Shown here: positions 6,131-60,650 of the stretch, one piece after another
How the letters are laid out: each line of letters begins with the position of its first letter
Numbering within the stretch: position 1 is the stretch's first letter
Assembly: GCA_937916085.1 (NCBI GenBank)
Contig: CALGGO010000060.1
Span: forward strand, 1,602 to 65,601
Length of the DNA: 64,000 nucleotides
Source of the DNA: an uncultured Prevotellaceae bacterium
GTDB lineage: Bacteria; Bacteroidota; Bacteroidia; Bacteroidales; Muribaculaceae
Reading direction: 5' to 3'
Notes under the pieces: model-generated
Seen by the model: the letters and a program-made list of their open reading frames with translations, nothing else
Told to the model about the DNA's origin: nothing
The model's database searches: none
Position numbers and translations under genes: made by a program

Positions 6131-6142
6131 GCATTAGCCAAT

Positions 6143-9523: not shown

Positions 9524-9544
9524 AAACCATTTATTCACTTATTT

Positions 9545-10453: not shown

Positions 10454-10563
10454 ATATTATGTCACGACTCAGCGATTTATACAAGGCAATGGAAACGTTG
10501 CGGAAAGAAGGTCTCTCCTTGAATGAAGATTTGGAGCGGCATATAAGCTAACTGGAATAAGAA

Positions 10564-44731: not shown

Positions 44732-44735
44732 AGTG

Positions 44736-44767
44736 TATTTACTTTTTTTGCGTAATTACGCATTTTT
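44736..44767. repeat. 32-bp element, copy 2; contains the perfect 14-bp palindrome TGCGTAATTACGCA (44749-44762)
   Basis: Lies between the candidate -7 box (44774-44781) and the ATPase start codon (44731), an operator-like position. Confidence 0.85.
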
Positions 44768-44773
44768 TGTTTG

Positions 44774-44781
44774 CAAAGATA
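44774..44781 (-). promoter_or_regulatory. Bacteroidota -7 box candidate (minus strand TATCTTTG) for the ATPase gene
   Basis: The plus strand reads caaagata, 43 nt upstream of the start at 44731. Confidence 0.4.
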
Positions 44782-44810
44782 TATGTTTGTGTTGGAATGC
44801 GCAAGTTTTT

Positions 44811-44842
44811 TATTTACTTTTTTTGCGTAAATACGCATTTTT
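44811..44842. repeat. 32-bp element, copy 3
   Basis: tatttactttttttgcgtaaatacgcattttt, identical to copy 1. Confidence 0.9.
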
Positions 44843-44883
44843 AGCAACTTGCTCCATTCTGTGCTGGCTCAGCCATTCGTTTC

Positions 44884-44912
44884 AATTCGTGTGCTTCTTT
44901 TATCGACTACTG
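44884..44912. repeat. 29-bp direct repeat, right copy (includes the stop codon of the LTA-synthase paralog)
   Basis: Identical to 43379-43407. The stop TAG is on the minus strand at 44907-44909. Confidence 0.9.
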
Positions 44913-46871: not shown

Positions 46872-46879
46872 TATTTTTC

Positions 46880-46914
46880 GTTTATCGGGGATCGGGGATC
46901 GTTGTTCGTTTATC
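46880..46914. repeat. Heptamer array NNNNATC x5 just upstream of a minus-strand start codon
   Basis: gtttatc/ggggatc/ggggatc/gttgttc/gtttatc. Confidence 0.9.
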
Positions 46915-46945
46915 GAAGACAGTGAAGTGATTAATGGCAACGCAC

Positions 46946-47006
46946 TCTCTAATCGCTAATCGCGCTTTGCGCAACTAATCTCTAATCACTAATCGCGCGA
47001 AGCGCC
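46946..47006. repeat. NCTAATC heptamer words interleaved with GCGC-NNN-GCGC mini-hairpins
   Basis: tctaatc gctaatc gcgc-ttt-gcgc aactaatc tctaatc actaatc gcgc-gaa-gcgc. Confidence 0.9.
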
Positions 47007-47008
47007 CT

Positions 47009-48328
47009 CTACTCTCTACTGAAAACATCTCCTGTGCCGTTGCAGTGCTCGCATTGGTAGTAGCCGCGCCCGTTGCACTCGCTGCAGTTGACATATCCGT
47101 GTCCTTCGCAAAGCGCGCACTCCATGTAGTCATCGATACTGAAATTATACTCTTTGCCACTGCCGCTGCAGTTGCTGCAACTGGTGTGGCCTTCACCCAA
47201 ACAAGATAAACAATACTCTTTACCTGAGCCGTCGCAGTAGCTGCAACGTCCTGCCTGGATAACGGTCAATGTTCTTTCTTCGGTGCCACTACTGAGGGTG
47301 ATATTGCATTCTCGGGGATAAGGATAAATGTTTTGGTCGATGACTACGGTGAATCCCGATGTTGTCCTGTCGGTAAGGCTGCACATGTAAGGGTCATCAA
47401 TTTTGTAATAGATTGAAGACGGGTCTCCATCGGTGTCAAGTTCGATAACCACCTCATCGCCGTCATGTCCAGTTCTGATAAGATCTTGCGAGAGGCTGAA
47501 ATAGGTGGCATTGGCGCTTTGCTTGACGGTAATTTTTGCTTGCAGGTCGCCAGCCTTCAGTTTGATGATGCCCTCACGGTCTTCGTAGGAGCCCATAGGC
47601 TCGCACTTAATGGTGATTTCTCCGTCACCAGTGGTGACGTTCACCCAATCGGGATGTTTTGCCACTTCTATCTCTTTAGCGTCGGTGTCGATGATAACCG
47701 TTTTCTCGCCGCCTTTGCGTGTGAACGTCACCACCTCGTCGTCGGGACGGAGTTTTGTCACTTTGTTGTAGAAAAAGAAGTAATAGGCAGCTCCGCCCAG
47801 CACGCCCAGCAGCAATAGTGTAACTAGAGTGACGGCTAATCCCGACAGTCCTTTCTTTTGGGGCTTTTGGTAGTTTTGAGAATTGTTCGGTCTTTGTGCG
47901 GAAGGCATGGGCGTGCGGGAATATCTCTGATATTGCTGGTTTGGAACAACAAAGGCGCATCGGCAATGAGGACAGAAAGCCGAGTCGGTAGGTATCATGC
48001 TTCCGCAATCGGGGCATTGCATCAATTTGTCGGTGGCAGCCGCGTTATCAGCGACAGGCCGCTGGGGAACGGTATTCACGCTTTGCGAACTGGCGTGATT
48101 TTGAGCCGTTTCTTCGCCAGTCGTGTCGCTTGGCGATGGTGGCGGTGGCGTCAGCGACTGGTTATCAGCTTGCTGCAGCGTGAGCGGCGAATGATTATCG
48201 TTGCCCGTTGCAGTATTGGGTTCGTGACGCTCACTCTCGTAGGCATCTCGGTCTATGGGCTGCATAATGCCGCAAAAGTTGCAGAACTTGTTATTGCCTA
48301 TCTCTCGATAACACTTGATGCATTTCAT
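47009..48328 (-). CDS. Membrane protein: 2 N-terminal zinc ribbons, 1 TM helix, 2 BACON-like modules, six CxxCxGxG (DnaJ-CR-like) motifs
   Basis: 439 aa. MKCIKCYREIGNNKFCNFCG and CPDCGSMIPTDSAFCPHCR. TM helix LAVTLVTLLLLGVLGGAAYYFFF. Modules ending ...AKITVKQ and ...RTLTVIQ. CSYCDGSG, CLSCLGEG, CSNCSGSG, CALCEGHG, CSECNGRG, CEHCNGTG. Confidence 0.6.
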   Translation of the reverse strand: MKCIKCYREIGNNKFCNFCGIMQPIDRDAYESERHEPNTATGNDNHSPLTLQQADNQSLTPPPPSPSDTTGEETAQNHASSQSVNTVPQRPVADNAAATDKLMQCPDCGSMIPTDSAFCPHCRCAFVVPNQQYQRYSRTPMPSAQRPNNSQNYQKPQKKGLSGLAVTLVTLLLLGVLGGAAYYFFFYNKVTKLRPDDEVVTFTRKGGEKTVIIDTDAKEIEVAKHPDWVNVTTGDGEITIKCEPMGSYEDREGIIKLKAGDLQAKITVKQSANATYFSLSQDLIRTGHDGDEVVIELDTDGDPSSIYYKIDDPYMCSLTDRTTSGFTVVIDQNIYPYPRECNITLSSGTEERTLTVIQAGRCSYCDGSGKEYCLSCLGEGHTSCSNCSGSGKEYNFSIDDYMECALCEGHGYVNCSECNGRGYYQCEHCNGTGDVFSRE

Positions 48329-48332
48329 TTTA

Positions 48333-48420
48333 GTTTATCGGTTATTGGTTATCGTTTATGGAAGATCGGGGATCGGGCTCTTCCACTAATCACTAATCTC
48401 TAATCAGCGCGAAGCGCTCT
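48333..48420. repeat. Heptamer arrays (NNNNATC, then NCTAATC) ending in a GCGC-GAA-GCGC hairpin
   Basis: gtttatc/ggttatt/ggttatc/gtttatg/gaagatc/ggggatc/gggctct ... actaatc/actaatc/tctaatc/agcgcgaagcgct. The hairpin encodes the last codons of the gene ending at 48404. Confidence 0.9.
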
Positions 48421-49156
48421 CCCCTCCAACAGGTTGCTGGATGTGCTTGATGTCCTTCACTTGGTGGTCCTTGATGGTGACCACGGCAATGGGTTTGATG
48501 TCTCTAGCATCTATATTCTCACGGGTGGAGTGGCTGCTCTTGAAGTACCCTACTTTGTAGATGAAGGACTTGTTGCCCACTTTGAGCTTTGCGCTACATT
48601 CACCAAAACGGCCATTATTGTAGTTATGGATGCCGAATTCATAGTCGCCATCGGCGAGCTGGTTGGCACTGGGCCAAGCGATGTTCTCCACACCTCTGTC
48701 TCGCGGACTTTGCATATCCACATCGAGCTGACCGCCACAGCGTGTGCGCCTGGGAGCCCGGTATTTCTGGAAGTAGATGTGCGCTCCAGTTGGTTCCTCG
48801 GCATGAGCGTCGAGATCCACGATGTCACGGCCGTTTTCGTTCCACATGATGGTAAATCTCATAAAGGCGTCGGTGTCACCGCCTTCTTCTTCCACTGCTT
48901 CGTCGATTTCGTCGCTCACTTCCTCACTAGGTTCCTCGTGAGTGATTCTTCGCTCGATGATAGTGGTATCGTTAACGACAGTAGTGTCGTTGCCGCCTCG
49001 GTCGTAGGTTCCTGTGCAGTTATAGGGCAGCAAGATGAGCAGTGCCAGCGCAATGAGGTTGAGCAAGCCCAGCACGCCACACATCCACGCCAGTCGGCGC
49101 TTGCGTCTCTTCTCATCGGTCGTTGGTTTGACCGGTTTAGGTGTATTTTTTGTCAT
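48404..49156 (-). CDS. N-terminally membrane-anchored protein, weak resemblance to the YfaP/DUF2135 domain
   Basis: 250 aa. TM helix LAWMCGVLGLLNLIALALLILL. The VDLDAHAEEPTGAHIYFQ...CGGQLDVDM...GVENI pattern is reminiscent of DUF2135 (by memory only). Confidence 0.45.
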   Translation of the reverse strand: MTKNTPKPVKPTTDEKRRKRRLAWMCGVLGLLNLIALALLILLPYNCTGTYDRGGNDTTVVNDTTIIERRITHEEPSEEVSDEIDEAVEEEGGDTDAFMRFTIMWNENGRDIVDLDAHAEEPTGAHIYFQKYRAPRRTRCGGQLDVDMQSPRDRGVENIAWPSANQLADGDYEFGIHNYNNGRFGECSAKLKVGNKSFIYKVGYFKSSHSTRENIDARDIKPIAVVTIKDHQVKDIKHIQQPVGGESASR

Positions 49157-49215
49157 ATTTGTTTATTGTTTAATTTCTTGATATTTTAGAAGTTCTAGCA
49201 AAAGAGGAATGATCT

Positions 49216-50178
49216 TTATCTCTCATCTCTCACCTCTTCCCTCTCTCCTCTCTCTTGAAAATAGGGCTGAGCCTCAACAGTTTTATTGTTTTTGCTGCTT
49301 TGTTTGCTAGAAATTGTCTCTAAGTTGATGCCTGGGTTTTCGTTGTTTACGGTTGCCGTGTCGGTGACCTCGGTGGCAGGGGTTTGTTCAGTCGTCTCGT
49401 TGCCGCCTTTGTCCTTGACCACCATCAAAGTGACAACACTAGCAATTGCCGCGCCAAGTAGGAAGGAAAGAATAGGTATGAGCCACTTGAGATGTGTAGC
49501 GTGAGAGGTGGAAGATGGAACGTGAGTGGTGGATTGCGAAAGGTGTGAGGAGGAACGTGAGATAGGTGAAGTAATCTGTTCCACGCCTGGCACCTCATTG
49601 TTGCACCAAAACTTGTTGATGAGAAACACTTCGCCATACTGCTCCTGCACCGATTGCTCTGGATACTGGAAGATGTCGTAGAGTTCCTCGTTGGAGCCAT
49701 ACACGCGGAATGCCTGCTGGCTGAGGTTCTGCACTGGTGTAATGACTGGTGTAGCAACGTTGAGGGTAGGCATCTGGCAGGCGACAAGGCAGTGTTCTAC
49801 CGCAGTGGCAGTGATGTTGTCGGTGTCGAGGACGTTAGTCTTGAGCTGATTGAGGAGGTCGAAAATCGCCTTGCCGTCAATGACTGAGTCATATTGTGCG
49901 CCTATCATCACCGTGATGGCTACATATCCTTGTCGCGCGTCACGCTCATAGCGTGTGAGCAAGGAATAGTAGGTGCCGTTGGCGTCGCAGTGAATCTTGT
50001 AGCCATATTTCGCCATGGGGAACAGAGTCCTGATGGCTCGCGGGTCGGTAATGGGGTTGAGCCACTGCAGCGACGAGGTGTCCATGGGGTTGAAAGGCTC
50101 GGGATAAGTGAGCTTGTGTATGGTGTCGTCGTTAAACTGTCCGTAGAAGTCGATTTTGAGATAGTTGTAGTTTGACAT
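49216..50178 (-). CDS. Hypothetical protein with a C-terminal TM helix
   Basis: 320 aa. TM helix WLIPILSFLLGAAIASVVTLMVV near the C-terminus, then a Ser/Thr-rich segment and a charged tail. No family recognised. Confidence 0.5.
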   Translation of the reverse strand: MSNYNYLKIDFYGQFNDDTIHKLTYPEPFNPMDTSSLQWLNPITDPRAIRTLFPMAKYGYKIHCDANGTYYSLLTRYERDARQGYVAITVMIGAQYDSVIDGKAIFDLLNQLKTNVLDTDNITATAVEHCLVACQMPTLNVATPVITPVQNLSQQAFRVYGSNEELYDIFQYPEQSVQEQYGEVFLINKFWCNNEVPGVEQITSPISRSSSHLSQSTTHVPSSTSHATHLKWLIPILSFLLGAAIASVVTLMVVKDKGGNETTEQTPATEVTDTATVNNENPGINLETISSKQSSKNNKTVEAQPYFQERGEREEVRDER

Positions 50179-50225
50179 AGTTATCTGTTATCAGTTGCCA
50201 GTTCTAAGATTGAGCATTAATCAAG

Positions 50226-51638
50226 TTACATTCTCAAAAAAATATTCTTTTTCAAGCTAGGCGTTTTGGCGAGTAGCACGTCAACCACGTCATCGATGAA
50301 ACTGTCGTCGTAGCAGCAAATCTTGCCGGCAAATACCTCGCCTATGGAGAATGGGATGATTTTGAAGTCTTTGATGCCAGCGTCGTCGCACGCCCATTGC
50401 AGGTTGTTGTAGAATGAAGACAGGTTGTTCTTCACAAATTGCTCGGCATTGTCAACGATCAACTCGTCGGGGCATTGCATCTTGTCGCACTTAGTGACAA
50501 GGATATACACGCCAGTGGAGTTTTTCAGAATCTTGTTTTCCTTGATGTAGAGCGAGCAGGCATGCAGATAGTCGCGCATATATAGCCCCTCCCATTGAGT
50601 GGCCTCGCCGCCATATTCCACCACAAAGAAGTGGATTTTGGGGTTGCTGTTGTCGGCGAGGAACTTCATCACGTGGGCGAGAGTCTCCTTGTGCTCCTGG
50701 TCGAGGAACATGTCGTTCATGTCGTAGTATATGGAACGGAAAATCTCGCCGGCGATATCGATGAAGGTGGCGCGGTGCAGCTTGTTCTTCGCGTCGGTGA
50801 TGGTGAAGATCATCTCCTGTATCACATTGACGATGGTGCTTGGTGGCAGGCTGCAATACTTGTGGTGGGCGTCAAACACGTTGCGCAACTGCGTCATGTA
50901 GTGATAGCCCTGGCACTTTTGTGGCTCAAGGTTGTAGTTGTTCATCGCCCCACACAATATTGAGCCTATAGCGCAGGTTTTTCCCGATGACGGCGTACCC
51001 CAGAAATATACCTCGGTAGAGTCTTGAGTCAAAGCCTCAGGGACTTTAGGGTTGGGCTGGATATCCCGCTCAACAAAGTCCTTGATGGCCTGGGCGCGCT
51101 CAGAGCCGTAGGCCATCGTAACATCATTCCATGTGATGATATTGCCGGCGACAGCTTTCTGTATCTCGTCGGCATTCTTGAGGTCGCTGCTCATGTCGGC
51201 GATAAACGCGTCGGGACCTTCAATCATCTCTTGGCACTCATTGATGTGCGCTCCACCTAGTGGCTCATAAAACTCAAGATATTGCTTTAGCAAGGATTTT
51301 GAGCCGCTGTGCAGGATATTTTTCCAAAGGTGCTCTTCACCCGAGACGAGTGCCTGTCGGCAGGGCTCGGCAAAGGCTCCGTCGGGATAGGTTTTGAGAT
51401 ACCTGAAAAAGTCGGCGGCATTTCCTGTTTGGCATGCTTTGGACCACAGCTGGTTCTCGTTGTCTTTGAGTTCTTGCTCAATGACATCGAGTCTTTGCTC
51501 AATTACCTTGAGTTTCTCGGGCGCTAGTTGTATGCGCCTCAACTCATCGAGGGTGATGATGCCTCGCTGAATCGACGTGATGAGACTCGACACTGGCACG
51601 CCATGAGCTATTCCTAATACTTGTTCTTTAGTGGGCAT
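50226..51638 (-). CDS. Predicted GTPase (TRAFAC-like G1/G3/G4 motifs) with a helical N-terminal domain
   Basis: 470 aa. G1 GTPSSGKT (nt 50976-50999), G3 FIDIAGE, G4 LVTKCDK. Confidence 0.6.
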   Translation of the reverse strand: MPTKEQVLGIAHGVPVSSLITSIQRGIITLDELRRIQLAPEKLKVIEQRLDVIEQELKDNENQLWSKACQTGNAADFFRYLKTYPDGAFAEPCRQALVSGEEHLWKNILHSGSKSLLKQYLEFYEPLGGAHINECQEMIEGPDAFIADMSSDLKNADEIQKAVAGNIITWNDVTMAYGSERAQAIKDFVERDIQPNPKVPEALTQDSTEVYFWGTPSSGKTCAIGSILCGAMNNYNLEPQKCQGYHYMTQLRNVFDAHHKYCSLPPSTIVNVIQEMIFTITDAKNKLHRATFIDIAGEIFRSIYYDMNDMFLDQEHKETLAHVMKFLADNSNPKIHFFVVEYGGEATQWEGLYMRDYLHACSLYIKENKILKNSTGVYILVTKCDKMQCPDELIVDNAEQFVKNNLSSFYNNLQWACDDAGIKDFKIIPFSIGEVFAGKICCYDDSFIDDVVDVLLAKTPSLKKNIFLRM

Positions 51639-51665
51639 TATTTTGTGTTGTCATTTTTATGGGCT

Positions 51666-51702
51666 AACAAGCTGACGCTTGTACTACAATAACACTACAG
51701 AT
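51666..51702. repeat. 36-nt intergenic element with a CAAGC-TGAC-GCTTG hairpin (copy 2 of 2)
   Basis: aacaagctgacgcttgtactacaataacactacagat. Compare 15868-15903. Confidence 0.8.
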
Positions 51703-51729
51703 GCTTGTTGAGGCTCTGTTTTCAGTTGA

Positions 51730-54288
51730 TTAACTATTTCGTTGTCGGGCTTTATTCACCGCTTTGTCGGCCTGAATTGCCGGGCCGGTCTCTTTGCCGT
51801 TGCGAATGCTCACGCCAGTGGATGTCAACGCCGAGAGGGCTTGGCTAACGGTGACATTCTTGTTTACCGATTTCATCAGTGCCACCACACCAGTGACGAT
51901 GGGTGCCGCCATGCTAGTGCCGTCTTGTGCCTGATAGCGGTTGCCGGGCATGGAGCTGTAGATGCCCTCGCCAGGTGCCGAGACATAGACGGTGCTGCCA
52001 AAGTTGGACCATTCGGTGCGGGTGTTGTTCTTGCCAATAGCCCCCACGTTGATGGTGCTTTTTGACCTCAATTGTGGCTGCATGGCTGCCAGCAGGTTGC
52101 TGTTTCCTGCGGCAAACACGATGATGGTGTTCTTCTTGCCTGCTTGCTCAAAGACCCATTTCCACACGTCCTCGGCGGGCTTGAAATAGCTTCGTGCCAC
52201 CTCTTTCTGTTCCTCGATGGGCACGATGTCGCCTAATTGCACAGGATAGGCGGTGCCTATTGAGACGTTCACCACGTCGGCGTTGTTGCGAATGGCATAC
52301 ATGATGCCGCGTATTACCCCCGAGATGGTACATTGACCGTTGTCAAACACCTGCACAGGCATGATTTTGCAGTTGGGGGCTACTCCCGCGGCCCCCTGGC
52401 TCACATGAGTGGTGTTGCCGGCGGCGAGACCTGCCACATGAGTGCCGTGTCCTATTCCTGAGCTCAGGTGGTCGTCGCAGCGAAACACGTTGTAGGGCTT
52501 GGTGATGCGCCCTGAGAACATCTCGTGGTTGAGGTCAAGACCATCATCAACAACGGCTACCGTTACGTTGGCATTGCCCTTAGAGATTTGCCAAGCCTGC
52601 TTGATGTGTGCAGCCTCTAGATGCCACCCTTTAGGCAGGGTGGAACGTGAGGCGCCAGGTTGCTGTCCGCCAGCCATAATCACCTCATCAACCACTTTAA
52701 ACTTCATTGAAGGAATCTTCGACGGTAGCTCGTCGCGGATTTTAGGGCGTTCCTCAGGCGGGACCTGCACCAGCAGCCAGCGTGTGTTCTTGTCTTTGCC
52801 TATGATTTTGTATTGCTCGCCGGGGTAGTTGCGCTTGAACTCGGTGGCAAACTTCTGGAAATCGGGGTTGTCGTTGTCGAAGAAGATGTTGAGCCTGTCG
52901 CTCATCACCTCGGGGCTGTTGGGGTCGTCGGGGTTGAGGCGACCTCGGTCGGAGATGGGGTCGCCGTTGTCATCAACCAGCGGTGGAGCCACCTCGTCGT
53001 CACCGTCCAAGTCATCGGAGATGTCTCTGATGCCACGGCGGTTGCCGTTGTCGTCGATATAGTCGCCGTCGTCGGTGCGTATGCGCTCAATGACTCGCTC
53101 ATCGTGGATGATGACGCGCGTGCGCCCTTGTATCGTGTCGGTAGTGTCGGCGCCAACAATGTTGTCGTGAATACCGCGCACGCAGCCTCCTAAGGTTCCG
53201 GAGCACGAAGTGCAGCGGGTGAGCACGATGGCAAGGAGCAAGAACAGCAGCAGCGCGAGCAGTGCCATCAGCAGCCAGCGCAGGCAGCCGTCGCCAAACC
53301 AGCGTTTCCACCAGGGCAACCGGGAATATAGTGCCACAAAGGTGGTGTCGCTGGTGATGGGCTTCTCTACTGCCTTGTCCCACCCCAAGAAGGAATAGCC
53401 TTTGAGCGGTGTGACGAGAGGTATCATCTCTGGCGTGAGCACGGTGCCTGGGGGCACGGTCATCGCTGGCGACGTGCCACTCAGGGTGCCATAACCGCCG
53501 TTCTCAAATTTCACCTCGCATTCCTGTGGGCTAGGCACGGGTGGTGGCAGCTCGGGCTGATAGGGTGGAGGAGTTGCTTCCTTCTCGCACTGCGCCACAA
53601 AGTGTAGGTCGCCGTTGACTTGTGCATTGTTGGGGTCAAAAGGCATCCAGCTCACGAAGACGAAGCCCTCGTCGGGGATCACCTTAGGAACATCGATGCC
53701 TGGGTGCAGCTTGTAGCCGTGTCGGCGCATGAACGATGTGGTGCCTTTCAGGGTGGCGTTGTTGGTCTCAAACGATACCCTGTGCAGACGATTGTCATCG
53801 ACAACGGTGACTATCGAGGTGTTCATGCTCTGCCCAGGCATGGGCATGATGCCCCACACGCCCAAAATCACTTGTGACTCGGTGACAAACGCCATCTCGT
53901 CGATATCGGTAGAGTCGATATACTTGATGAGGCAGTTAAAGTAGGGCTTCGCGTCGTCGCTCACTTGCGTGGCGAGGTTGCGGAAGTGGGCGGTGGCGTC
54001 GGCAATATATTGCTTGGCAGCAAAATATTGCTGAGTGCCAGCCAGGGAGGAGAGTTTTACAGCATGAGCAAACTCTGGGTCAACATGCCACTCCAGCCCG
54101 TGTAGAGCTGGTTCAAAATAGGGCATGGCGAAGAATTTCTTGTAGCGTGGCTCGGTGACATACTTGTCGAGCAATCTCTCGAAGTCGTCTCGCCTGTTAT
54201 AGAACGGAGTGCCGCCCAGGTTCTCCACGATGAAAATGCTCATGGGAGACGTGGTACACAGCCGTACTTTATTTTTCACGTTTGGCAT
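51730..54288 (-). CDS. Membrane-anchored S8 (subtilisin-family) serine peptidase with an N-terminal domain containing Listeria-Bacteroides-type repeats
   Basis: 852 aa. Catalytic triad contexts VAVVDDGLD, HGTHVAGLAAGN and GTSMAAPIVTGV. TM helix WLLMALLALLLFLLLAIVL around residue 340. Asp-rich stretch DDGDYIDDNGN...DDLDGDDE. Repeat-like GYSFLGWDKAVEKPITSDTTFVALY. Confidence 0.8.
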   Translation of the reverse strand: MPNVKNKVRLCTTSPMSIFIVENLGGTPFYNRRDDFERLLDKYVTEPRYKKFFAMPYFEPALHGLEWHVDPEFAHAVKLSSLAGTQQYFAAKQYIADATAHFRNLATQVSDDAKPYFNCLIKYIDSTDIDEMAFVTESQVILGVWGIMPMPGQSMNTSIVTVVDDNRLHRVSFETNNATLKGTTSFMRRHGYKLHPGIDVPKVIPDEGFVFVSWMPFDPNNAQVNGDLHFVAQCEKEATPPPYQPELPPPVPSPQECEVKFENGGYGTLSGTSPAMTVPPGTVLTPEMIPLVTPLKGYSFLGWDKAVEKPITSDTTFVALYSRLPWWKRWFGDGCLRWLLMALLALLLFLLLAIVLTRCTSCSGTLGGCVRGIHDNIVGADTTDTIQGRTRVIIHDERVIERIRTDDGDYIDDNGNRRGIRDISDDLDGDDEVAPPLVDDNGDPISDRGRLNPDDPNSPEVMSDRLNIFFDNDNPDFQKFATEFKRNYPGEQYKIIGKDKNTRWLLVQVPPEERPKIRDELPSKIPSMKFKVVDEVIMAGGQQPGASRSTLPKGWHLEAAHIKQAWQISKGNANVTVAVVDDGLDLNHEMFSGRITKPYNVFRCDDHLSSGIGHGTHVAGLAAGNTTHVSQGAAGVAPNCKIMPVQVFDNGQCTISGVIRGIMYAIRNNADVVNVSIGTAYPVQLGDIVPIEEQKEVARSYFKPAEDVWKWVFEQAGKKNTIIVFAAGNSNLLAAMQPQLRSKSTINVGAIGKNNTRTEWSNFGSTVYVSAPGEGIYSSMPGNRYQAQDGTSMAAPIVTGVVALMKSVNKNVTVSQALSALTSTGVSIRNGKETGPAIQADKAVNKARQRNS

Positions 54289-54291
54289 AAT

Positions 54292-54415
54292 AGTTAAGTT
54301 TCAAGTGTTAAGTTTTAAGTGTTAAGTAGTGGAGAGAGCGCTACGCGCGATTAGCGATTAGTTGCGCTACGCGCGATTAGAGATTAGAGAGGTTCTCGAT
54401 CCTCGATTCTCCATA
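54292..54415. repeat. About 125-nt spacer made of heptamer words (NNNTAAG, GATTAGN, TCGATYC) plus two GCGC-TAC-GCGC hairpins
   Basis: agttaag/tttcaag/tgttaag/ttttaag/tgttaag ... gcgctacgcgc gattagc/gattagt tgcgctacgcgc gattaga/gattaga/gaggttc/tcgatcc/tcgattc. Confidence 0.9.
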
Positions 54416-54417
54416 AA

Positions 54418-57231
54418 TTAGTTAGCGTCAATCTCGTTGATGATTTCTCCTAGTCGCTTGTTGGCGGCGATGTCGTAGTCGGGGAGGTCGCACGAGAGGA
54501 TGTAGCCCACTTTCAGATACTCTAACCAGGTCCACTTGAAGCCGTAGCGTGGCAAGCGGATGAGCGCCTTGCGGTCGTTGGGGTTATAGCCTTTCTCCCG
54601 CAGCTTGCGGTTGGCATGGTCGAGTTCTTCTAGCAGTTTCACTCCCGAGAGTCCATTGTGTGACGTGAGCATCTCCTCGCTGATGTTAAGCTTCAACCTG
54701 GCATTCTTCTCGAGGATGTTGCTCAGATGCTTGCTGTCGATGTAGTCAAACCCAAAGGTGGTGATAAAGTGGTTAAACTCCATCGCCAGATAGTCGGCGA
54801 TGATAGCCACGGCACTATCTTTGTCGAAGGACGTGAGATACTGGTCGATGCGCTTGGTGATGCGGTCGTGCATTCCCAGGAAGCGGTAAAGTCTGATGAG
54901 GTTGGTGGTCATGTCGCTCACGGCGGGGATGACGTCTTTGCACTTGGGCACCACATATTGTGTGAGGTATTCCTCTATCCAGTATTTCTCTACCATCGTC
55001 GCCACCTGTTCGGCTTGCGAGTTCACCATGCGGTTAGAGTTGAGCAGCTTGTTGATGTCGATGCCTTCGGCGGCAAGCATCTCGTTGCACTCCTCCTCGG
55101 TATCTACTCCTAGCGAGTCACACAGTTTCTCGAGGTTTTGTGCCCTCGACGCCTCAGTGCTGAGTCCAAACTGCATGAAGAGAGCTTTCTCGGAGTCGGG
55201 TTGCGATGTGGTGGTCACCGTGTTGTTGAGGGCGTTGTGGATTTTTTCATACAGGTGTGGCTCGTCAATCATCATGATGTCGAGCATCTTGCCAAAGGCG
55301 GCAGGGTCGGTGCCTTCGATTTTGCCTAGCTGCAGGTTGGCCTGTGCCGCTTGGCGTTTAGCTTTCTTGATTTCGTCGTCGGGCGAGCCGCTGTGGTAAT
55401 ACTTGGAAAGCAGGCTCTTGAGCATTGCCACGAGACGTGTTATCTCATCGCCAAACATGTTGTCTCTTGCCTGTTTCACGCGTGGTGCTAGCTGGTTGAG
55501 GGCGGCGATGATGGGCTTGGTGCCGTCGTTGTTGAGTGTCGCCGCGCTGTCCCAAGCTTGGTTGGCATCGACAAAGTGCTGCTGCACGAAGTCGTAATGC
55601 ACGAAGGAGTCCTTGAGGCACTGCATGAAGTTGGGGAACGCCGCTGGGATGATTTCCTCGGTCTCGGGCGACTTGGTGTTGGGGTTGTAGCCAGTGAACG
55701 ACTTTGTGGAATACTTGAAGTCGCGTAGCATGAAGATGCTGCGGAAGGGGTGTCCCGTAGTCCACTGGTTGAACCAGTGCGTCTGGTCTTCGTCGGTGTT
55801 GGCTCGCAGCACTTCTTTCTCGAGCACAATCTTGAAGCGGTTGTCCCAGCGTCGGCGCAGCTCTTCGAGTTTGTTGGGGGAGTCGTTGGTCTGGTATTCC
55901 AGGTCGAGGTTGAAGAAAGTGCTGATGATGAACAATGGCGACATCTGTGTGTCGTGCATGAAGGTGTCGCGCTGTGCCGCTGTCTCACCCACGTTGTTCT
56001 TCACCCATTGCTCGAGGACGATGCCCATCTTGCTCTCGGCACTCTGCATATTGTTGTGGCAGAGCATGAGGGAGCTGATGCGCTTGGTGTCGCTGTAGCG
56101 GTTGAAGAGGTAGGTCACCTTGCCGCGTCGCAGCACTACCGAGAGGTTCTTGCCGTTGGTTATCTTCTCCGATGCCATGTTTTCGGGACGGCGCTCGCCG
56201 GGGAAGTCGAGGATGTCGAGGCAGGAGAGGAAATTGCGGGTCTCGCTCTCGAGAGTGGGCAGCGACATATATAGCTCGGCGACGAGAGCGCTGAGCTCGC
56301 CCTTGCGCATCTCTACCGACATGTTCTGCTGGGTGGTGACAATCGTGGTGGGACGATAGTCGGGAAGTTCTATCTCGCTCTCGTCATAGATCTCGTCGAG
56401 GCGTGCCACGTCGAGCAGCGTGCCATGCTTCTTGAGCACCGCGTCGAAGGGCACATACACCGTGGAGTTGAACCTGATGGAGCGGTAGGCGGTGATGAGG
56501 GTGTCGAAGAGGCGGTTGATGGATGGGTTGTCGAACCACAGCAGCTTTATTGCCGAGAGGAGCTGGTCGTCGGTAAGGCGGTTCACGTTGAACAGCAAGA
56601 ATGAGAACAGCCCTGATTCGGGGTCGGTGAGATTTGCGACCCGCTGCTTCATGGTGGAGTTGCGCAGGTAGTCATAGATGTCCATCACGTCGTCCTGGGT
56701 GAGGATGGGTGAGGGGTTGGGCACCGACGACACCTCAATCGAGTCGCAGTAGTGACGTATGTAGTCAATTTTCTTGATTTCGGAGTTGTCGTAGTCGGTC
56801 TGCGTGTGATAAGCCTCACACAAGACTAGGATGATGTCGGCAACCGACAGCAGGCGTGCCTTGAGGTAGCCCTCGGGGACGGCGGGGTCGGTGTTGGAGG
56901 TAAATCGTGTCACCACGCCGGTGGCCTCTACGCGCGAGTTGGGGTTGCTGGGGTTTATCTCGTCGATGAAGTTGTATTCGCGGCGGCCGTCGGTGACGGT
57001 GAAGGGCTTGCCGGGGTCGCTCATCAGCGCGCTCACGAGGTAGGACTTGCCCATCTGGCTCTCGCCGAAGGCTGCGGTGGAGCACCGCTCATCGGCGGCA
57101 AACTGAATCTTCTTGAATGCGCGTCGCAGGTTTACCAACTGCTCGAGGTAGTTCTGTCTTTCGCTATCGGGGACATTCAACTGCCATGAAATGGCTTTCT
57201 CTACGATGTGAAGATATTGGTTGATATTCAT
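54418..57231 (-). CDS. SrfC-like large P-loop NTPase (dynamin-like G motifs)
   Basis: 937 aa. Walker A/G1 GESQMGKS (nt 57043-57066), ATGVVTRF, DILDFPGE (DxPG as in dynamins). Lies directly downstream of a SrfB-like gene. Confidence 0.55.
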   Translation of the reverse strand: MNINQYLHIVEKAISWQLNVPDSERQNYLEQLVNLRRAFKKIQFAADERCSTAAFGESQMGKSYLVSALMSDPGKPFTVTDGRREYNFIDEINPSNPNSRVEATGVVTRFTSNTDPAVPEGYLKARLLSVADIILVLCEAYHTQTDYDNSEIKKIDYIRHYCDSIEVSSVPNPSPILTQDDVMDIYDYLRNSTMKQRVANLTDPESGLFSFLLFNVNRLTDDQLLSAIKLLWFDNPSINRLFDTLITAYRSIRFNSTVYVPFDAVLKKHGTLLDVARLDEIYDESEIELPDYRPTTIVTTQQNMSVEMRKGELSALVAELYMSLPTLESETRNFLSCLDILDFPGERRPENMASEKITNGKNLSVVLRRGKVTYLFNRYSDTKRISSLMLCHNNMQSAESKMGIVLEQWVKNNVGETAAQRDTFMHDTQMSPLFIISTFFNLDLEYQTNDSPNKLEELRRRWDNRFKIVLEKEVLRANTDEDQTHWFNQWTTGHPFRSIFMLRDFKYSTKSFTGYNPNTKSPETEEIIPAAFPNFMQCLKDSFVHYDFVQQHFVDANQAWDSAATLNNDGTKPIIAALNQLAPRVKQARDNMFGDEITRLVAMLKSLLSKYYHSGSPDDEIKKAKRQAAQANLQLGKIEGTDPAAFGKMLDIMMIDEPHLYEKIHNALNNTVTTTSQPDSEKALFMQFGLSTEASRAQNLEKLCDSLGVDTEEECNEMLAAEGIDINKLLNSNRMVNSQAEQVATMVEKYWIEEYLTQYVVPKCKDVIPAVSDMTTNLIRLYRFLGMHDRITKRIDQYLTSFDKDSAVAIIADYLAMEFNHFITTFGFDYIDSKHLSNILEKNARLKLNISEEMLTSHNGLSGVKLLEELDHANRKLREKGYNPNDRKALIRLPRYGFKWTWLEYLKVGYILSCDLPDYDIAANKRLGEIINEIDAN

Positions 57232-57240
57232 AATTATGTC

Positions 57241-57320
57241 GTTTATCGTTTATCGGAGTTCGGAGTTCGGGAATCGGGGATCGGGATCGGAGAACTCTGA
57301 ACTCTTAACTGAGAACTCCT
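57241..57320. repeat. Heptamer array spanning the SrfB-like stop codon and the 18-nt spacer
   Basis: gtttatc/gtttatc/ggagttc/ggagttc/gggaatc/ggggatc/gggatc/ggagaac/tctgaac/tcttaac/tgagaac. It encodes the C-terminal tail ...SSEFSDPDPRFPNSELR. Confidence 0.9.
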
Positions 57321-60300
57321 TTAAGTCGGTGGTTGCAATATTCAAGTTAAATTCTCCTGAGTCGAGCCAGTAGCATTGTGGGTCGTTGATGCTCTGCACT
57401 TGCAGCATGAAGTCGTCGGCCTTTAGTTCCTCGCCGTCGCTGCCGGTGACCGCGACGATGGTGAGGTGCTCCTTGTCCTCGTCGTAGGCCTCGCGCTCTA
57501 TCTCAAAGGTGAAAGGTCCCTTCTTGAACAACTCCTCGCGGTATTCGCGCAGCATGCGTTGCTGCTGCTCGGGGGTGAGAATCTTGTTCTTGCTGATGCG
57601 CTCCTTGATGCGGCGGTCGTCGATGTCGAGGACGAAGAATGGTCGTAGCGGATATATGTCGATGTCAAACTGCTTGGCACCGATGTAGCACGGGAAGGAG
57701 TTGATGGTGATGCGTCCGTTGTTGACGGTGGGAGTGATGATGCATTCCTCCTTGGGGATGCCGCCCATGCGGTAGAAGCTCTCGGTGGTGGGCACCAGCT
57801 TGTCGCTCAGGTCGCTCAGGTCGAGCGAGAACTCGTTGAGGCCTCCCGCCATCGACGCCAGGTAGCCAATCATGGCACCCACAGGGACGATGCTCTTGGT
57901 GTCGTGCATGTAGCCGTTCTCGTCTTTGAAGGGATACCAGCGCCCTATGCGGTACTTGCCCAGGACAATAAGTCGGTTGGGGCTCACGGGGAAGTACTTG
58001 AGGAAGCAGTCCTTGATGGGCTTGAGCATGGTGGGGCGTCCCGAGAGCACCACGATGTCGCAGTCGTGGGCGTAGAGCAGTGTGGATATCGACTCGATGA
58101 GAGAGTCGAGCGATTTCTCCACATGCTGCGAGAGCACTTTGTGGTCGTAGGTCCACACCACTTCGCTGAGCTCAAAGCCAAAGCGCTCTTTGAAGGCTTC
58201 ACACACTATGTCGCTGGGCTTGCTGCTCTGACCAAACATCTCGTCGTGGCCAATCTCAAGGTAACGCTCGCCCTCGCTCAGCAGGTTGAGGAAGCGGTAC
58301 ATGACGGGCACATTGACCTGCATATTGAAATCTCGGCGCATGATGCGGTCTTTGAAGGTCATCATGTTGTTGTCCTGACCGAAGAAGTGATACAATATCT
58401 TATAGGCTTCCTGGCGGCTCTTGCCCATCTTCTCGGTGAGGTGGCGGTAGAGGATGCCGTTGTCGCTCTCGATAATCACGTTGTGAACCAGCTGCTGCAG
58501 CATGTCGTCGCCCGCCACGTTGAAGCTGTCCCAGTAGATGGGGTCGGGCTTGATTTGCGAGGGGTTGCTCTCGTTGTAGCGATACTGGCACACCATCACG
58601 TCGGTGGTGCCGGCGCCTATATCTACCGACCCCACTCTGAGGGTGTCGCACTCCATGTCGTCGATTTTGCGTTTCTTGCCATAGAGCTTGAAGAAGAGGT
58701 CGCTGCGGTTCTTGTAGCGCTCGCAGAACTGGGCGTAGAGATACACAAACTGCGAGCAGGTGGCCTCGTCGTAGTACCACTGCTTGTGCTCATCGTCGTG
58801 GTAGCGCTGTGGCTGGTTGCCGGGAATCACCTGCATGTGCAGGGCGATGCTGTTGGGGTCCACGATGTGATGATAGGAATTGATGATTTTCACCGCATCG
58901 TCGAAGCTGCTGTAGAGGGCTTGGCGCTCCACCCTCGACATTGCGGTGGGGCAGGTGATGATCACGCGCTCGAGGCGGCGCGGGGTGTTGCGCAGGTCGT
59001 GGCGCTCACGCGACTGGAAGCTGTTGATTTGGGTTAGCGCCTGCTCTATTATCTCGATGAAGGCGAGGGTCATGAGCGAGCGGCGAGAGTAGTGCGCCCC
59101 TATGCCGTAGCCCTCGGCGTTTACTGTGCCGTCGTCGTTGAGGAAGCAGGTGAGGCCCTCGATGATGGGTGGCAGCGAGTAGTTCTCGTCGCCAATGTTG
59201 ATGAATCGCCACTCGTTCTCGGTGCGCTTGCCGTCCCACAGGTAGCGCTTGGGGCTGGAGTTGGTGGAGAGGGTCTCAAAGCCCAGGTTGAGTGCCGTGG
59301 CCTCGTGGTTGAGGTAGCGGGCCTCACGTCCGAGCCTGATGATGCTGGGCCACACAAACTGGTTGCTGCCGGCAATGTTCTTGCCTATGGTGACCTTGCG
59401 GAACGCCAGCCGCATGTCGAAGGTCTCTTCCACGCGGTTAAGGTCGCCGTTAGGGAGCAATATGTGGGTGAAATTCTGGAGTCGCAGCGCATCGACCTTG
59501 GTGAAGTCTTGCGTGAACTTGTTGTTCTCGAAGAGCAGCGCCGAGGTGCGTGAGTTGCCGATGTCGATGATCATCTCCACGTTGACGATGTTCACGTCGC
59601 GGTCGCGCATGAGCTTGACGGTGGGGAAGAAGTCGTCGAGGCTGCTCAGGTACTTGATGAGCATGAGGTAGGTGGCGAGGAACTCATATTTGTGCCTGCC
59701 GTCTTTGAGCTCGAGCACGTCGAAGTTCTTGGCGTCGGGGTAGGCGATTTCCATCAGGTAGTCGCGCACCCAGTTGTTGTTCCAGGTGCAGTAGTCGATG
59801 AGCTGTCGCTCGTTGCCGCACAGCCCAAAGAGTTTCTCGCTCTCGCCGTCGCTCATAAACACGGGGAACTCTTTGTAGGCGTCGAGGGCGTTGTAGCGCG
59901 CCTGGGTGTCGAAGGCGAGCACCACGTCGGCGGTGAGGATGCCGGCATTGGTCTCGCGCGGCACTATCATGAACTTGCACCAGTTGTAGGGACCCTTCTT
60001 GTAGTCGCCGGTGTCGTCCTGCTCGATAAACGGCATGGGCAGCCACACGTTGAAGTAACGGCTCAGGAACTTGTTGTTGGCAGCTAGCTTTGAGAAGAAG
60101 ATGCCTAGAGACTCTTCCTCGCCCGCGCCAACGTTGAACTGCTTGACCTCGGGGTTGGCGAGAATCACCGCCTCGCTGGTGGTGAGCTTGTTGTCATTGT
60201 CGAGATACCCTTTCTCGCGCAGCTGCGAGGTGAGCACCACCACCTGGTTGCTCAGGGTGTAGGCAAACTCGAGTTTCCACTGAAAGCGCTCGTCGTCGAA

Positions 60301-60399
60301 CGACTCGGCAAAGCGGCACTTAAAACCCGCATTGAGGTTGATCTCGATGCGTTTCGACAGTAGCTGAATGCCCGAATTGGCGATTAATGAATGGTCCAT
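57250..60399 (-). CDS. SrfB-like actin/Hsp70-fold (ASKHA) ATPase
   Basis: 1049 aa. Phosphate-binding motifs IIDIGNSRTSALLFE and GSVDIGAGTTDVMVCQY. SSPKRYLWD, ITCPTAMSRVE, VVLSGRPTMLKPI and RIGRWYPF match my recollection of the SrfB family. Confidence 0.6.
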   Translation of the reverse strand: MDHSLIANSGIQLLSKRIEINLNAGFKCRFAESFDDERFQWKLEFAYTLSNQVVVLTSQLREKGYLDNDNKLTTSEAVILANPEVKQFNVGAGEEESLGIFFSKLAANNKFLSRYFNVWLPMPFIEQDDTGDYKKGPYNWCKFMIVPRETNAGILTADVVLAFDTQARYNALDAYKEFPVFMSDGESEKLFGLCGNERQLIDYCTWNNNWVRDYLMEIAYPDAKNFDVLELKDGRHKYEFLATYLMLIKYLSSLDDFFPTVKLMRDRDVNIVNVEMIIDIGNSRTSALLFENNKFTQDFTKVDALRLQNFTHILLPNGDLNRVEETFDMRLAFRKVTIGKNIAGSNQFVWPSIIRLGREARYLNHEATALNLGFETLSTNSSPKRYLWDGKRTENEWRFINIGDENYSLPPIIEGLTCFLNDDGTVNAEGYGIGAHYSRRSLMTLAFIEIIEQALTQINSFQSRERHDLRNTPRRLERVIITCPTAMSRVERQALYSSFDDAVKIINSYHHIVDPNSIALHMQVIPGNQPQRYHDDEHKQWYYDEATCSQFVYLYAQFCERYKNRSDLFFKLYGKKRKIDDMECDTLRVGSVDIGAGTTDVMVCQYRYNESNPSQIKPDPIYWDSFNVAGDDMLQQLVHNVIIESDNGILYRHLTEKMGKSRQEAYKILYHFFGQDNNMMTFKDRIMRRDFNMQVNVPVMYRFLNLLSEGERYLEIGHDEMFGQSSKPSDIVCEAFKERFGFELSEVVWTYDHKVLSQHVEKSLDSLIESISTLLYAHDCDIVVLSGRPTMLKPIKDCFLKYFPVSPNRLIVLGKYRIGRWYPFKDENGYMHDTKSIVPVGAMIGYLASMAGGLNEFSLDLSDLSDKLVPTTESFYRMGGIPKEECIITPTVNNGRITINSFPCYIGAKQFDIDIYPLRPFFVLDIDDRRIKERISKNKILTPEQQQRMLREYREELFKKGPFTFEIEREAYDEDKEHLTIVAVTGSDGEELKADDFMLQVQSINDPQCYWLDSGEFNLNIATTDLKEFSVKSSEFSDPDPRFPNSELR

Positions 60400-60440
60400 C
60401 TTGTTTTATAGTTTGATTTCGTTTTTATCGTGATTTATCG

Positions 60441-60448
60441 CAAAATTA
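60441..60448 (-). promoter_or_regulatory. Bacteroidota -7 box candidate (minus strand TAATTTTG) for the SrfB-like operon
   Basis: The plus strand reads caaaatta, 42 nt upstream of the start at 60399. A second candidate, caaagtta, lies at 60492-60499. Confidence 0.4.
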
Positions 60449-60650
60449 CTTCTAATACTTTCTCTTTCCCTAAATATTGCAAAATCAATGCCAAAGTTAA
60501 TGTTTTTTTGTCATAGACGATACAGATTTCTTTTTTTTAACTAATGTCTTAGAAACCTAGTCAATGTTTTAGAGTTTGTAAAAAACAAAAAGAGACTCAA
60601 GGTCAAGACCCCAAGTCTCAAAAAAATCTTCTTTAACCACTAAACTTACA

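Follow-up and report, generated by a model that had tools for sequence, protein, structure and literature searches.

The DNA described here, referred to below as the window, is a stretch of 64,000 nucleotides (nt) from contig CALGGO010000060.1 of assembly GCA_937916085.1, an uncultured Prevotellaceae bacterium. The host is a rumen member of the Muribaculaceae. Its closest relatives are metagenome-assembled genomes (MAGs) from the rumen of yak, buffalo and cattle, with SrfC proteins 93-97% identical to the one found here. The subject is an operon of seven intact minus-strand open reading frames (ORFs), P1-P7, running from 60399 down to 47009. The genes, with their transmembrane segments as called by a hydropathy scan, are:

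57250-60399, minus strand: P1, SrfB, 1049 aa, no transmembrane segment
54418-57231, minus strand: P2, SrfC, 937 aa, no transmembrane segment
51730-54288, minus strand: P3, SrfA-like protein with a subtilase domain, 852 aa, one transmembrane segment
50226-51638, minus strand: P4, predicted helical repeats and TRAFAC GTPase, 470 aa, no transmembrane segment
49216-50178, minus strand: P5, bitopic protein, 320 aa, one transmembrane segment
48404-49156, minus strand: P6, type-II anchored protein, 250 aa, one transmembrane segment
47009-48328, minus strand: P7, zinc-ribbon/BACON/CxxCxGxG protein, 439 aa, one transmembrane segment

Ever since it was discovered SrfABC has carried the label of virulence factor or toxin, with no mechanism, and a literature search found no description of the Bacteroidota operon. 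What is new here is that this known but mechanistically unexplained kind of system occurs with a SrfA that bears a protease and with an additional GTPase module that can be separated from it. The gene arrangement had been proposed in a first-pass annotation made from the sequence alone. All seven ORFs were recovered at the same coordinates, with spacers of 18, 129, 91, 47, 59 and 75 nt in order from P1|P2 to P6|P7, within the range of 18-129 nt given there, and every motif quoted in that annotation was located at a defined residue in P1-P4 and P7. The hydrophobic segments lie at residues 331-364 in P3, 230-255 in P5, 21-49 in P6 and 159-186 in P7, and those of P3 and P6 have positive-inside flanks. 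Together with P3, the three proteins first described as single-pass (P5, P6 and P7) thus make four bitopic proteins.

The assignments of P1 and P2 to SrfB and SrfC were borne out by profile hidden Markov model searches. P1 is SrfB (Pfam PF07520, 594.6 bits, E 4.9e-178), with residues 3-1017 aligned to positions 12-991 of the 992 in the profile. It contains the motifs IIDIGNSRTSALLFE at 277, SSPKRYLWD at 381, GSVDIGAGTTDVMVCQY at 590, VVLSGRPTMLKPI at 783 and RIGRWYPF at 817, and all five are conserved in the SrfB proteins of Klebsiella, Rahnella and Runella. Motifs of actin/Hsp70 type are found as phosphate-1 DIGNSRT (D279), phosphate-2 DIGAGTTD (D593) and an adenosine-like LSGRP (785-789). 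The forms DxGxS.T (279), DIGxGTxD (593) and LxGRP (785) are kept from Bacteroidales to Klebsiella.

P2 is SrfC (Pfam PF10139 Virul_Fac, 334.6 bits, E 1.9e-99), a protein with 1635 relatives at E<=1e-5. A G1 motif, GESQMGKS, starts at 56 (K62), and DILDFPGE at 339 includes the G3 motif DFPG (342-345). There is no Pfam Dynamin_N match in SrfC. An AlphaFold2 model built with 40 homologues (predicted local distance difference test, pLDDT, 85.8; predicted TM-score, pTM, 0.78) displays an N-terminal alpha/beta NTPase domain followed by a long helical C-terminal half, the stalk. When this model was compared with the PDB using Foldseek the top matches were all of the dynamin family, with SynDLP at 3.7e-8 and BDLP at 1.8e-5, and further matches to Drp1, Fzo1, LeoA, MxB, Mgm1 and mitofusin. 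The dynamin-like character first read from the motifs, a dynamin-type GTPase fold with a helical stalk, is therefore supported by the modelled structure.

The first-pass annotation recognised the transmembrane segment, the Asp-rich stretch and the S8 triad of P3, and these were all found, while the homology to SrfA had been overlooked. A profile of 33 P3 N-termini aligned by hhalign to the SrfA proteins of Klebsiella and Rahnella, whose plasmids provided the srfABC sets used for comparison, with a probability of 96.4% and E 1.1e-9 over 143 columns. The match joins P3 residues 3-152 (nt 53833-54282) to SrfA residues 3-156, and the motifs FAxP...W and VxxWG are shared. Residues 20-142 of Rahnella SrfA also find P3-family N-termini by BLASTP (E 7.9e-5). 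The relationship is remote, since NCBIfam gave no SrfA-family model for P3 at E<=0.01. A homologue search using the N-terminal domain alone returned three proteins only. By these comparisons P3 is a SrfA homologue, and since its N-terminus is homologous to SrfA-N, the operon encodes a complete but rearranged set in the order SrfB-SrfC-SrfA'. The same order, and not srfA-srfB-srfC, is found in all the 47 Bacteroidales loci described below and in Runella.

Proteobacterial SrfA has been described as a bitopic protein with a cytoplasmic SrfA-N domain, one transmembrane helix and a periplasmic lipocalin-like domain, and an AlphaFold 3 (AF3) model presents it as a platform that binds SrfB and then SrfC (preprint 10.64898/2026.09.18.752743). 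The lipocalin-like C-terminal domain with its four cysteines is not found in P3, where the hhalign match stops at residue 152 and the C-terminus is a Peptidase_S8 domain. In between, residues ~170-322 form two beta-rich modules that are weakly similar to the Listeria-Bacteroides/InlB B-repeat (Flg_new_2, sub-threshold). The transmembrane segment (nt 53197-53298), which has more positive charge on its N-terminal side, comes next, and then an Asp-rich acidic linker at residues 366-560 with 20% Asp+Glu. The S8 domain covers residues 574-824 (nt 51817-52569; Pfam E 2.8e-46). Its triad is complete and in the S8 order, with D581 (DDG at 581), H614 (HGTH at 614) and S792 (GTSM at 790), and the asparagine of AAGN at 726 is, by analogy with subtilisin, a candidate for the oxyanion hole. 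The subtilase thus appears to be catalytically intact, and it is predicted to be periplasmic.

No Pfam family was matched by P4, P5 or P6. P4 had been read as a second GTPase, and the AlphaFold2 model (pLDDT 91.7) agrees with this. It consists of an all-helical repeat domain similar to tetratricopeptide repeats (residues 1-~190), which is weakly CpoB/BamD-like, and a Rossmann-like NTPase domain (~205-470) that in Foldseek matches G-alpha, EF-Tu and SR-beta at about 1e-5. A TRAFAC fold is thus supported by modelling. The motifs are G1 GTPSSGKT at 214 (K220), Walker B DIAGE at 294-298 (E298) and G4 TKCD at 382. Invariant in the family are G219, K220, G297, E298 and, in TKxD, T382, K383 and D385. 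D294 is nearly invariant in an alignment of 31 sequences, and D294, G297 and E298 are all invariant in a second alignment of 36. DO-GTPases are TRAFAC GTPases with a glutamate in Walker B, found in predicted "GTPase-centric" conflict systems, often together with zinc-ribbon and transmembrane partners (Kaur, Burroughs, Iyer and Aravind 2020, PMC7159879). Among the matches listed, 10 of 120 P4 homologues have a precomputed PF19975 match. When P4 homologues were rescanned they scored 24.8-27.9 bits against Pfam DO-GTPase1 (cut-off 27), over the first ~100 profile positions only. This similarity is marginal and points to a remote relationship, not to membership in the family.

P5 is predicted to have a 229-aa cytoplasmic N-domain and a short outer tail after its transmembrane segment. 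The core family to which it belongs usually measures 540-690 aa, with the transmembrane segment near residue 400, and P5 is a shortened form. P6 has, following its type-II anchor, a predicted periplasmic domain of about 200 aa that matches no family, and it is present in five loci only. A likeness to the DUF2135/YfaP domain, noted by eye, was dropped since P6 has no Pfam match even at E<=10. P7, found in only four loci, combines two predicted cytoplasmic zinc ribbons, seen as four N-terminal CxxC pairs, with two BACON modules and six CxxCxGxG motifs at 362-433. Its BACON modules (Pfam E 3.9e-14) and the six motifs were as first described, while the Pfam matches to Zn_Ribbon_1 and DnaJ_CXXCXGXG are sub-threshold.

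SrfB and SrfC had been considered as known only from Proteobacteria. This does not hold, as both are annotated in RefSeq for Runella and PF10139 is found in hundreds of Bacteroidales proteins. When species-representative genomes were scanned with a SrfC alignment, 47 loci were obtained, all from Bacteroidales; two peptide patterns served to recover the 47 species-level genomes. The loci span Muribaculaceae, Prevotellaceae-labelled MAGs, Bacteroidaceae, Alistipes, Barnesiella, Paludibacteraceae and Cryptobacteroides, and the system is thus common in rumen and gut Bacteroidales. SrfB, SrfC, P3 and P4 are collinear and on one strand in all loci that extend far enough, P4 lying directly downstream with short spacers. 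Clustering of the ORFs gave the following typical operon:

Genes 1-3: SrfB, SrfC and P3
Gene 4: fam4, about 330 aa, four transmembrane segments, 42 loci
Gene 5: a DUF805 protein, in some loci
Gene 6: P4, usually about 545 aa
Gene 7: the P5 family, 540-690 aa, 42 loci
Gene 8: fam5, about 286 aa, N-terminally anchored, 36 loci
Gene 9: a secreted coiled-coil protein from the mutually homologous families fam9, fam10 and fam14

The count for the P5 family holds once fam6 and fam7, which are homologous (hhalign 99.7%), are merged. The first-pass annotation took the seven genes of the window as the whole system. The core of it, SrfB-SrfC-P3-P4, is indeed co-conserved, but the full set is not, and most relatives carry two further membrane genes, fam4 and fam5. 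The window operon has neither of these, nor the coiled-coil protein. Its P4 is two helical repeats shorter than usual (470 aa vs 543), and its P5 retains the first ~210 residues, the transmembrane segment and a short tail. As all ORFs are intact and the short forms of P4 and P5 recur in other assemblies, the window operon is a reduced natural variant of a larger conserved operon, with no obvious decay.

The loci differ at the periplasmic end and in their accessory genes. An S8 domain with all three triad signatures is found in 39 of the 47 P3 proteins. Five complete P3 proteins are short and have no protease, and all five loci contain a second P4 paralogue; three of them (L016, L017 and L019) also encode a PG_binding_1 protein. 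At two loci a short P3 is followed by a separate papain-like C1 peptidase. Taken with the lipocalin-like domain in Proteobacteria, this pattern suggests a periplasmic output that may be swapped on a constant cytoplasmic platform. Identity to close relatives drops along the operon, from 89-97% for SrfB and SrfC to 81-94% for P3, 77-89% for P4 and 58-78% for P5-P7. Even among relatives with more than 90% identity fam4, fam5, P6 and P7 come and go. The upstream flank is different in nearly every locus; in the window and in L002 and L006 the operon is flanked by the genes for leucyl-tRNA synthetase (LeuRS) and an acyltransferase. Outside the Bacteroidales, the Runella (Cytophagales) plasmid pSP2_1 encodes SrfB, SrfC, a P3 with S8 domain, a fam4-like protein, a P4-like GTPase and a P5-like protein.

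P4 belongs to a large, unannotated family, whose cluster representatives number 692 at E<=1e-30 and 4373 with the looser limit of E<=1e-10, some of the weaker matches being due to the helical repeats. Of four P4 homologues sampled, three sit in Srf operons, these being full operons of 11-12 genes. Exact-sequence look-ups of the P4, P5 and P7 of the window found zero contigs. In GCA_045112115.1 (L052:9061-15696) the order fam4-P4(741 aa)-P5-fam5-fam9 stands alone, SrfB, SrfC and P3 all being absent within 10 kb. The GTPase half is therefore a separable unit, a property that had escaped the first-pass annotation. On Klebsiella plasmids the genes after srfABC encode a hypothetical protein, a vWA protein, an ABC transporter and an FGE-type protein. 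BLAST and hhalign detected no P4 or P5 homologue beside proteobacterial srfABC, and gave no support for equating either the hypothetical gene that follows Klebsiella SrfC or the vWA protein with fam4, P4 or P5.

The predicted transcription signals at the 5' end of the operon are:

60441-60448, minus strand: predicted Bacteroidetes -7-type promoter box TAATTTTG, a consensus match 41 nt 5' of the SrfB ATG
60492-60499, minus strand: second predicted TAnnTTTG box TAACTTTG, from a pattern scan
60592-60619, minus strand: terminator-like hairpin with a 12-bp stem and the T-run TTTTTGTTTT, ending the upstream XAC2610-like gene and forming the 5' boundary of the unit

The first of these boxes had been reported before. 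By pattern scan the two are the sole minus-strand TAnnTTTG matches in 47009-60650, and there is none inside 47009-60399. Because of the upstream hairpin and the lack of an internal box, the sequence is consistent with a single transcription unit from SrfB to P7. An A-rich 'ACTTAAAACTTAACAC' leader recurs 5' of several of the operon genes.

The spacers also hold an inverted repeat. Its two arms, 54 nt long, 83% complementary and each made of two CTAATCNCTAATCGCGC(N3)GCGC units, bracket exactly P3-P7:

54338-54391: inverted-repeat arm 1, in the 129-nt SrfC|P3 spacer, two CTAATCNCTAATCGCGC(N3)GCGC units, RNA fold -27.6 kcal/mol, z -2.2
46945-46998: inverted-repeat arm 2, immediately 3' of the P7 stop, 17-bp hairpin without U-tract, RNA fold -28 kcal/mol, z -2.6

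A partial copy lies in the P6|P7 spacer at 48386-48405. The core motif of the units occurs seven times in the window (0.25 expected), only in three operon spacers, and the element is absent from 51 of 51 other loci compared. Arm 2 may form the 3' end of the transcript. As a whole the repeat could be an insertion resembling repetitive extragenic palindromic (REP) elements, an attenuator or stabiliser hairpin, or a site of recombination or inversion. When inversion of P3-P7 was looked for, the metagenome contigs of the Joint Genome Institute (JGI) held neither the native nor the inverted junction. The orientation is the same in all 47 relatives, which are without the repeat. No recombinase was found among 30 window ORFs scanned with Pfam, a scan that left several ORFs of at least 200 aa outside. 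Unrelated long palindromes (GGTGGAAGG...CCACGTTCC) lie in the SrfC|P3 spacer of L002 (12815-12934, z -4.5) and L009 (12815-12940, z -5.0), while other relatives have no such palindrome there; insertions that form hairpins seem to accumulate in this spacer.

Downstream of P7, two genes on the same strand (window 43475-46940) encode an LTA-synthase-like membrane protein of the sulfatase family, without a TAnnTTTG box of its own, and an AAA_14/DUF4143 ATPase. Instead of these, L002 and L006 have, directly after the last gene of the operon, a conserved flank of a 195-aa ORF and the acyltransferase, followed in L002 by LeuRS (L006 ends earlier), and the two genes are therefore an insertion specific to the window genome. 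Directly upstream of the operon, at 60651-61358, lies the gene for a signal-anchored XAC2610-related protein (NCBIfam 39.5 bits, cut-off 35), whose family we take to be that of an immunity protein that counters a peptidoglycan-hydrolase effector. In close relatives (L003:884-3940 and L009) two or three paralogues lie in tandem at this position, resembling an orphan-immunity array.

Farther away, about 36 kb from the operon, window 876-11265 has a lower GC content, for the greater part 0.34-0.45, and the look of an island for restriction or defence. Its products are a PLD-SNF2 helicase fusion of 1099 aa, a Schlafen AlbA_2/HATPase_c_4 protein, an Eco57I/TaqI_C-type methyltransferase of 1126 aa, a protein of no recognised kind and a YgjP-like metallopeptidase. 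The window also contains a 1539-aa protein with Ig-like domains of ASH/HYDIN/Cep192 type (17996-22615) and two SPFH/Band-7 proteins (23797-24759 and 31028-32371), one with a C-terminal GYF_2 domain. GYF_2 proteins also occur beside Srf operons in L053 and L054, where they are fused to CD225, and among the flanking families. No tRNA genes were found in the window.

The explanation we favour, at a probability of roughly 0.45, is that the operon encodes a Bacteroidota variant of SrfABC joined to a second GTPase module, forming an inner-membrane-anchored ATPase/GTPase complex that controls periplasmic hydrolases, likely in response to attack on the envelope. It builds on the domain identities, the topology signals, the SrfA-N homology, the co-conservation of the genes and their modularity. 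By analogy with the AF3 model of SrfA-SrfB-SrfC, the SrfA-N-like domain of P3 would dock SrfB, and then SrfC, on the inner face of the cytoplasmic membrane. The transmembrane helix and the acidic linker would join this cytoplasmic platform to the periplasmic subtilase. P4 and the bitopic P5 may form a second, separable switch-and-anchor pair, where the N-domain of P5 probably also docks the complex, while P6 and P7 would be accessories of the periplasm or surface, specific to the lineage. The cytoplasmic NTPases could then assemble or remodel the membrane depending on nucleotide, and the bitopic proteins could pass this on, so that periplasmic hydrolases are deployed, positioned or activated on targets in the envelope. 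The most likely purpose would be to respond to phage or competitor toxins acting at the envelope. We infer here both the physical complex and the direction of signalling, as well as the substrate of the protease and the role in conflict. The earlier description of a membrane-associated, NTP-driven machine of several components remains a fair reading, and its suggestion of a conflict or defence module receives circumstantial hints, set against flanks that are mostly housekeeping.

A defence role is plausible on circumstantial evidence. On the 93-kb plasmid pSP2_1 of Runella sp. SP2 (L048:1-12730) the SrfB-SrfC-S8 operon is directly preceded by a BREX-1 cluster that encodes BrxC, a methylase, an AAA ATPase, a restriction endonuclease, PglZ and BrxL. 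At L055:18922-19917 an AAA ATPase of the bpMoxR type (Pfam PF20030), the family of the MoxR-vWA-beta-propeller ternary conflict systems, is encoded directly 3' of a 10-gene Srf operon. A role in conflict is hinted at by these two neighbours, by the fast-diverging peripheral genes and by the marginal DO-GTPase1 similarity. We lean towards it also because the accessory content varies among relatives that are more than 90% identical and because the architecture resembles that of predicted DO-GTPase systems in its soluble NTPases, its partners with zinc ribbons or transmembrane segments and its variable periphery.

Several results weigh against this explanation. The ASKHA ATPase first proposed for SrfB stands as far as the conserved motifs go, and by motifs only: hmmscan, phmmer and hmmsearch against Pfam and PDB, a lenient Pfam search and hhalign against the Hsp70 protein HscC (probability 14.7%) gave nothing significant that would link SrfB to a solved ASKHA protein. 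No [NT]KxD, the G4 motif of guanine specificity, occurs anywhere in the 937 residues of SrfC. The P4 of the window scores 11.9 bits (E 0.14) against Pfam DO-GTPase1, below the cut-off of 27, and P5 as GAP1 was rejected, with no Pfam match at E<=0.01 for the long relatives and none at E<=10 for P5 itself. The lack of fam4 and fam5, kept in most relatives, may mean that full function is not assured in the window. PADLOC v2.0 was run on the seven operon proteins, three neighbouring window proteins and ten accessory proteins of relatives. SrfB, SrfC and P4-P7 had no match and P3 matched only generic subtilase and partial IetS models; two coiled-coil accessory proteins of relatives gave weak matches (E 1.7e-4 and 8.5e-3) to long coiled-coil defence models. 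The operon as a named defence system was dropped on this generic S8 and coiled-coil noise, in agreement with the first-pass annotation.

The genomic setting points the same way. The flanks of the 47 loci are mostly housekeeping (MreB, RodA, the gene of ribosomal protein S2, MutS, Rnf and D-Ala-D-Ala ligase). Defence-island context was rejected, as 138 non-redundant flanking proteins searched with Pfam and PADLOC, with family counts pooled over loci and not assigned to single ones, were mainly of housekeeping families, with a few scattered PDC, TIR and RecD-like matches. A phage-borne element was likewise rejected, since no phage record encodes SrfC. The sole IMG/VR contig with SrfBC (L051:432-5893; UViG_3300045988_173203) has a shortened SrfC of 792 aa followed by genes on the opposite strand, and may be a disrupted copy or a prophage-boundary artefact. 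The published phenotypes do not fit easily either. In Salmonella FlhDC controls srfABC, and loss of these genes affects nothing but swarming (PMC4219756), Xenorhabdus SrfABC has been reported as a cytotoxic, insecticidal tripartite toxin (PMC6950479), and silencing of srfB in Serratia leads to phage resistance, not sensitivity (PMC11797060).

A further reading is a so far undescribed immunity system acting at the envelope and common to many gut and rumen Bacteroidota, in which an actin-like ATPase, a dynamin-like NTPase and a DO-like GTPase would come together on bitopic sensors and unleash or position a periplasmic protease against incoming phage components or toxins injected by competitors. 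This we regard as doubtful; if true, it would give the 25-year-old 'virulence factor' family SrfABC a mechanistic role for the first time.

It is unlikely that the operon instead is an offensive or secretory machine for vesicle or toxin export, in which SrfC and SrfB bud or pinch the membrane and release vesicles carrying the anchored protease and the BACON protein. Vesicles loaded with hydrolases are released in large numbers by Bacteroidales, BACON modules are typical of the surface proteins of this order, and SrfC is structurally dynamin-like with LeoA among its Foldseek matches. The idea parallels proposals for LeoABC in enterotoxigenic Escherichia coli (ETEC) and for export of SrfABC through outer-membrane vesicles (OMVs). 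Besides the reported toxicity of SrfABC, it can draw on a preprint that argues for export of membrane-anchored SrfA in OMVs or in vesicles of outer and inner membrane (O-IMVs) (10.64898/2026.09.18.752743). The toxin data are, however, from crude co-expression in E. coli, without mechanism, and P3, P5, P6 and P7 are predicted to be bitopic in the inner membrane and not lipoproteins with an export signal. The periplasmic domain is also dispensable in the five loci with short P3, and the BACON protein P7 is restricted to four.

We find it just as improbable that the operon serves envelope homeostasis with no role in conflict, be it membrane repair or remodelling, periplasmic protein quality control or surface behaviour. 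Bacterial dynamin-like proteins repair membranes, and DynA or IniA and the Salmonella srf swarming phenotype provide analogues. The mostly housekeeping flanks, a chromosomal position that is stable in the nearest relatives (with LeuRS and acyltransferase beside the operon in the window, L002 and L006), the fact that Salmonella srfB and srfC mutants are defective in swarming only, and the variants with peptidoglycan-binding and peptidase outputs aimed at the cell wall all agree with such a role. The upstream flank that differs in nearly every locus, the accessory genes fam4, fam5, P6 and P7 that vary even between very close relatives, the fast divergence of the peripheral proteins and the carriage of the Runella copy on a plasmid beside BREX would be unusual for a core housekeeping function, and therefore disfavour it.

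The weakest alternative, two independent systems that happen to be adjacent, a SrfB-SrfC-SrfA' trio and a separate fam4-P4-P5-fam5 GTPase/membrane module, is suggested by the stand-alone module of L052, by the vWA protein, ABC transporter and FGE-type protein that take the place of P4 and P5 beside proteobacterial srfABC, and by a P4 family far larger than the sampled Srf-linked set, but is decidedly improbable given that P4 follows the trio in every Bacteroidales locus extending far enough, that most sampled P4 homologues sit in Srf operons, that the linkage recurs in distant Runella and that the window operon has no internal minus-strand promoter box.

Four known systems can be compared with the proposed complex. 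With the bacterial dynamin-like proteins (Nostoc BDLP, SynDLP, Bacillus subtilis DynA, ETEC LeoA and mycobacterial IniA) SrfC shares G1 GxxxxGKS, G3 DxPG and a long helical stalk, but it is without the NKxD G4 motif and the Dynamin_N match. The multi-domain conformations differ, and the TM-scores are therefore low (about 0.2). While dynamin-like proteins bind the membrane with their own paddle, SrfC has a partner with ASKHA motifs and is proposed to dock via SrfA-N.

The S8 domain of P3 is attached to a membrane machine, as are mycosin in type VII secretion systems (T7SS) and IetS/IteS in the anti-phage system IetAS. In NCBIfam, where the operon proteins gave sub-threshold subtilase families and two weak sub-threshold matches to P5 and P6, the best match of P3 is mycosin (8.9e-38), but with 130 bits against a cut-off of 279. 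Its PADLOC matches to IetS are partial (3e-9), and IteS scores 34 bits against a cut-off of 900. P3 has its transmembrane segment N-terminal to the protease, and the operon encodes neither the IetA ATPase nor ESX genes.

With the DO-GTPase systems (PMC7159879) the operon shares a TRAFAC GTPase with a Walker-B glutamate whose homologues match DO-GTPase1 marginally, a partner gene immediately downstream, zinc-ribbon and transmembrane parts and a constant core with a variable periphery. Some of these systems have an Hsp70-superfamily partner. Unlike them, P5 and its relatives have no detected GAP1 or GASH domains, one GTPase with an N-terminal helical-repeat domain is found instead of a zinc-ribbon-fused pair, and none of the effector domains described there is in this operon.

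The closest system is the proteobacterial SrfABC itself, as in Salmonella STM1593-1595, the 'SrfABC toxin' of Xenorhabdus stockiae and the IncFIB/HI1B plasmids of Klebsiella. Both have full-length SrfB and SrfC, which in the window are 25-27% identical to the Klebsiella proteins. Both also have a bitopic membrane protein that opens with a SrfA-N-like domain, and the three genes lie in one operon. The gene order differs, B-C-A' in the window vs A-B-C in Proteobacteria, and P3, unlike proteobacterial SrfA, has two InlB-B-repeat-like modules before the transmembrane segment. The accessories are a GTPase and bitopic proteins here, and a vWA protein, a Lol-like ABC transporter and an FGE-type protein there. 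The periplasmic part is an S8 protease, is absent or is replaced by a neighbouring C1 peptidase in Bacteroidales, whereas it is a disulfide-bonded lipocalin-like barrel in proteobacterial SrfA. The cytoplasmic trio of SrfA-N, SrfB and SrfC is thus a conserved platform on which the periplasmic attachments vary by lineage (lipocalin-like barrel, subtilase or none), which argues against a simple secreted toxin and for a generic nucleotide-driven engine working across the membrane.

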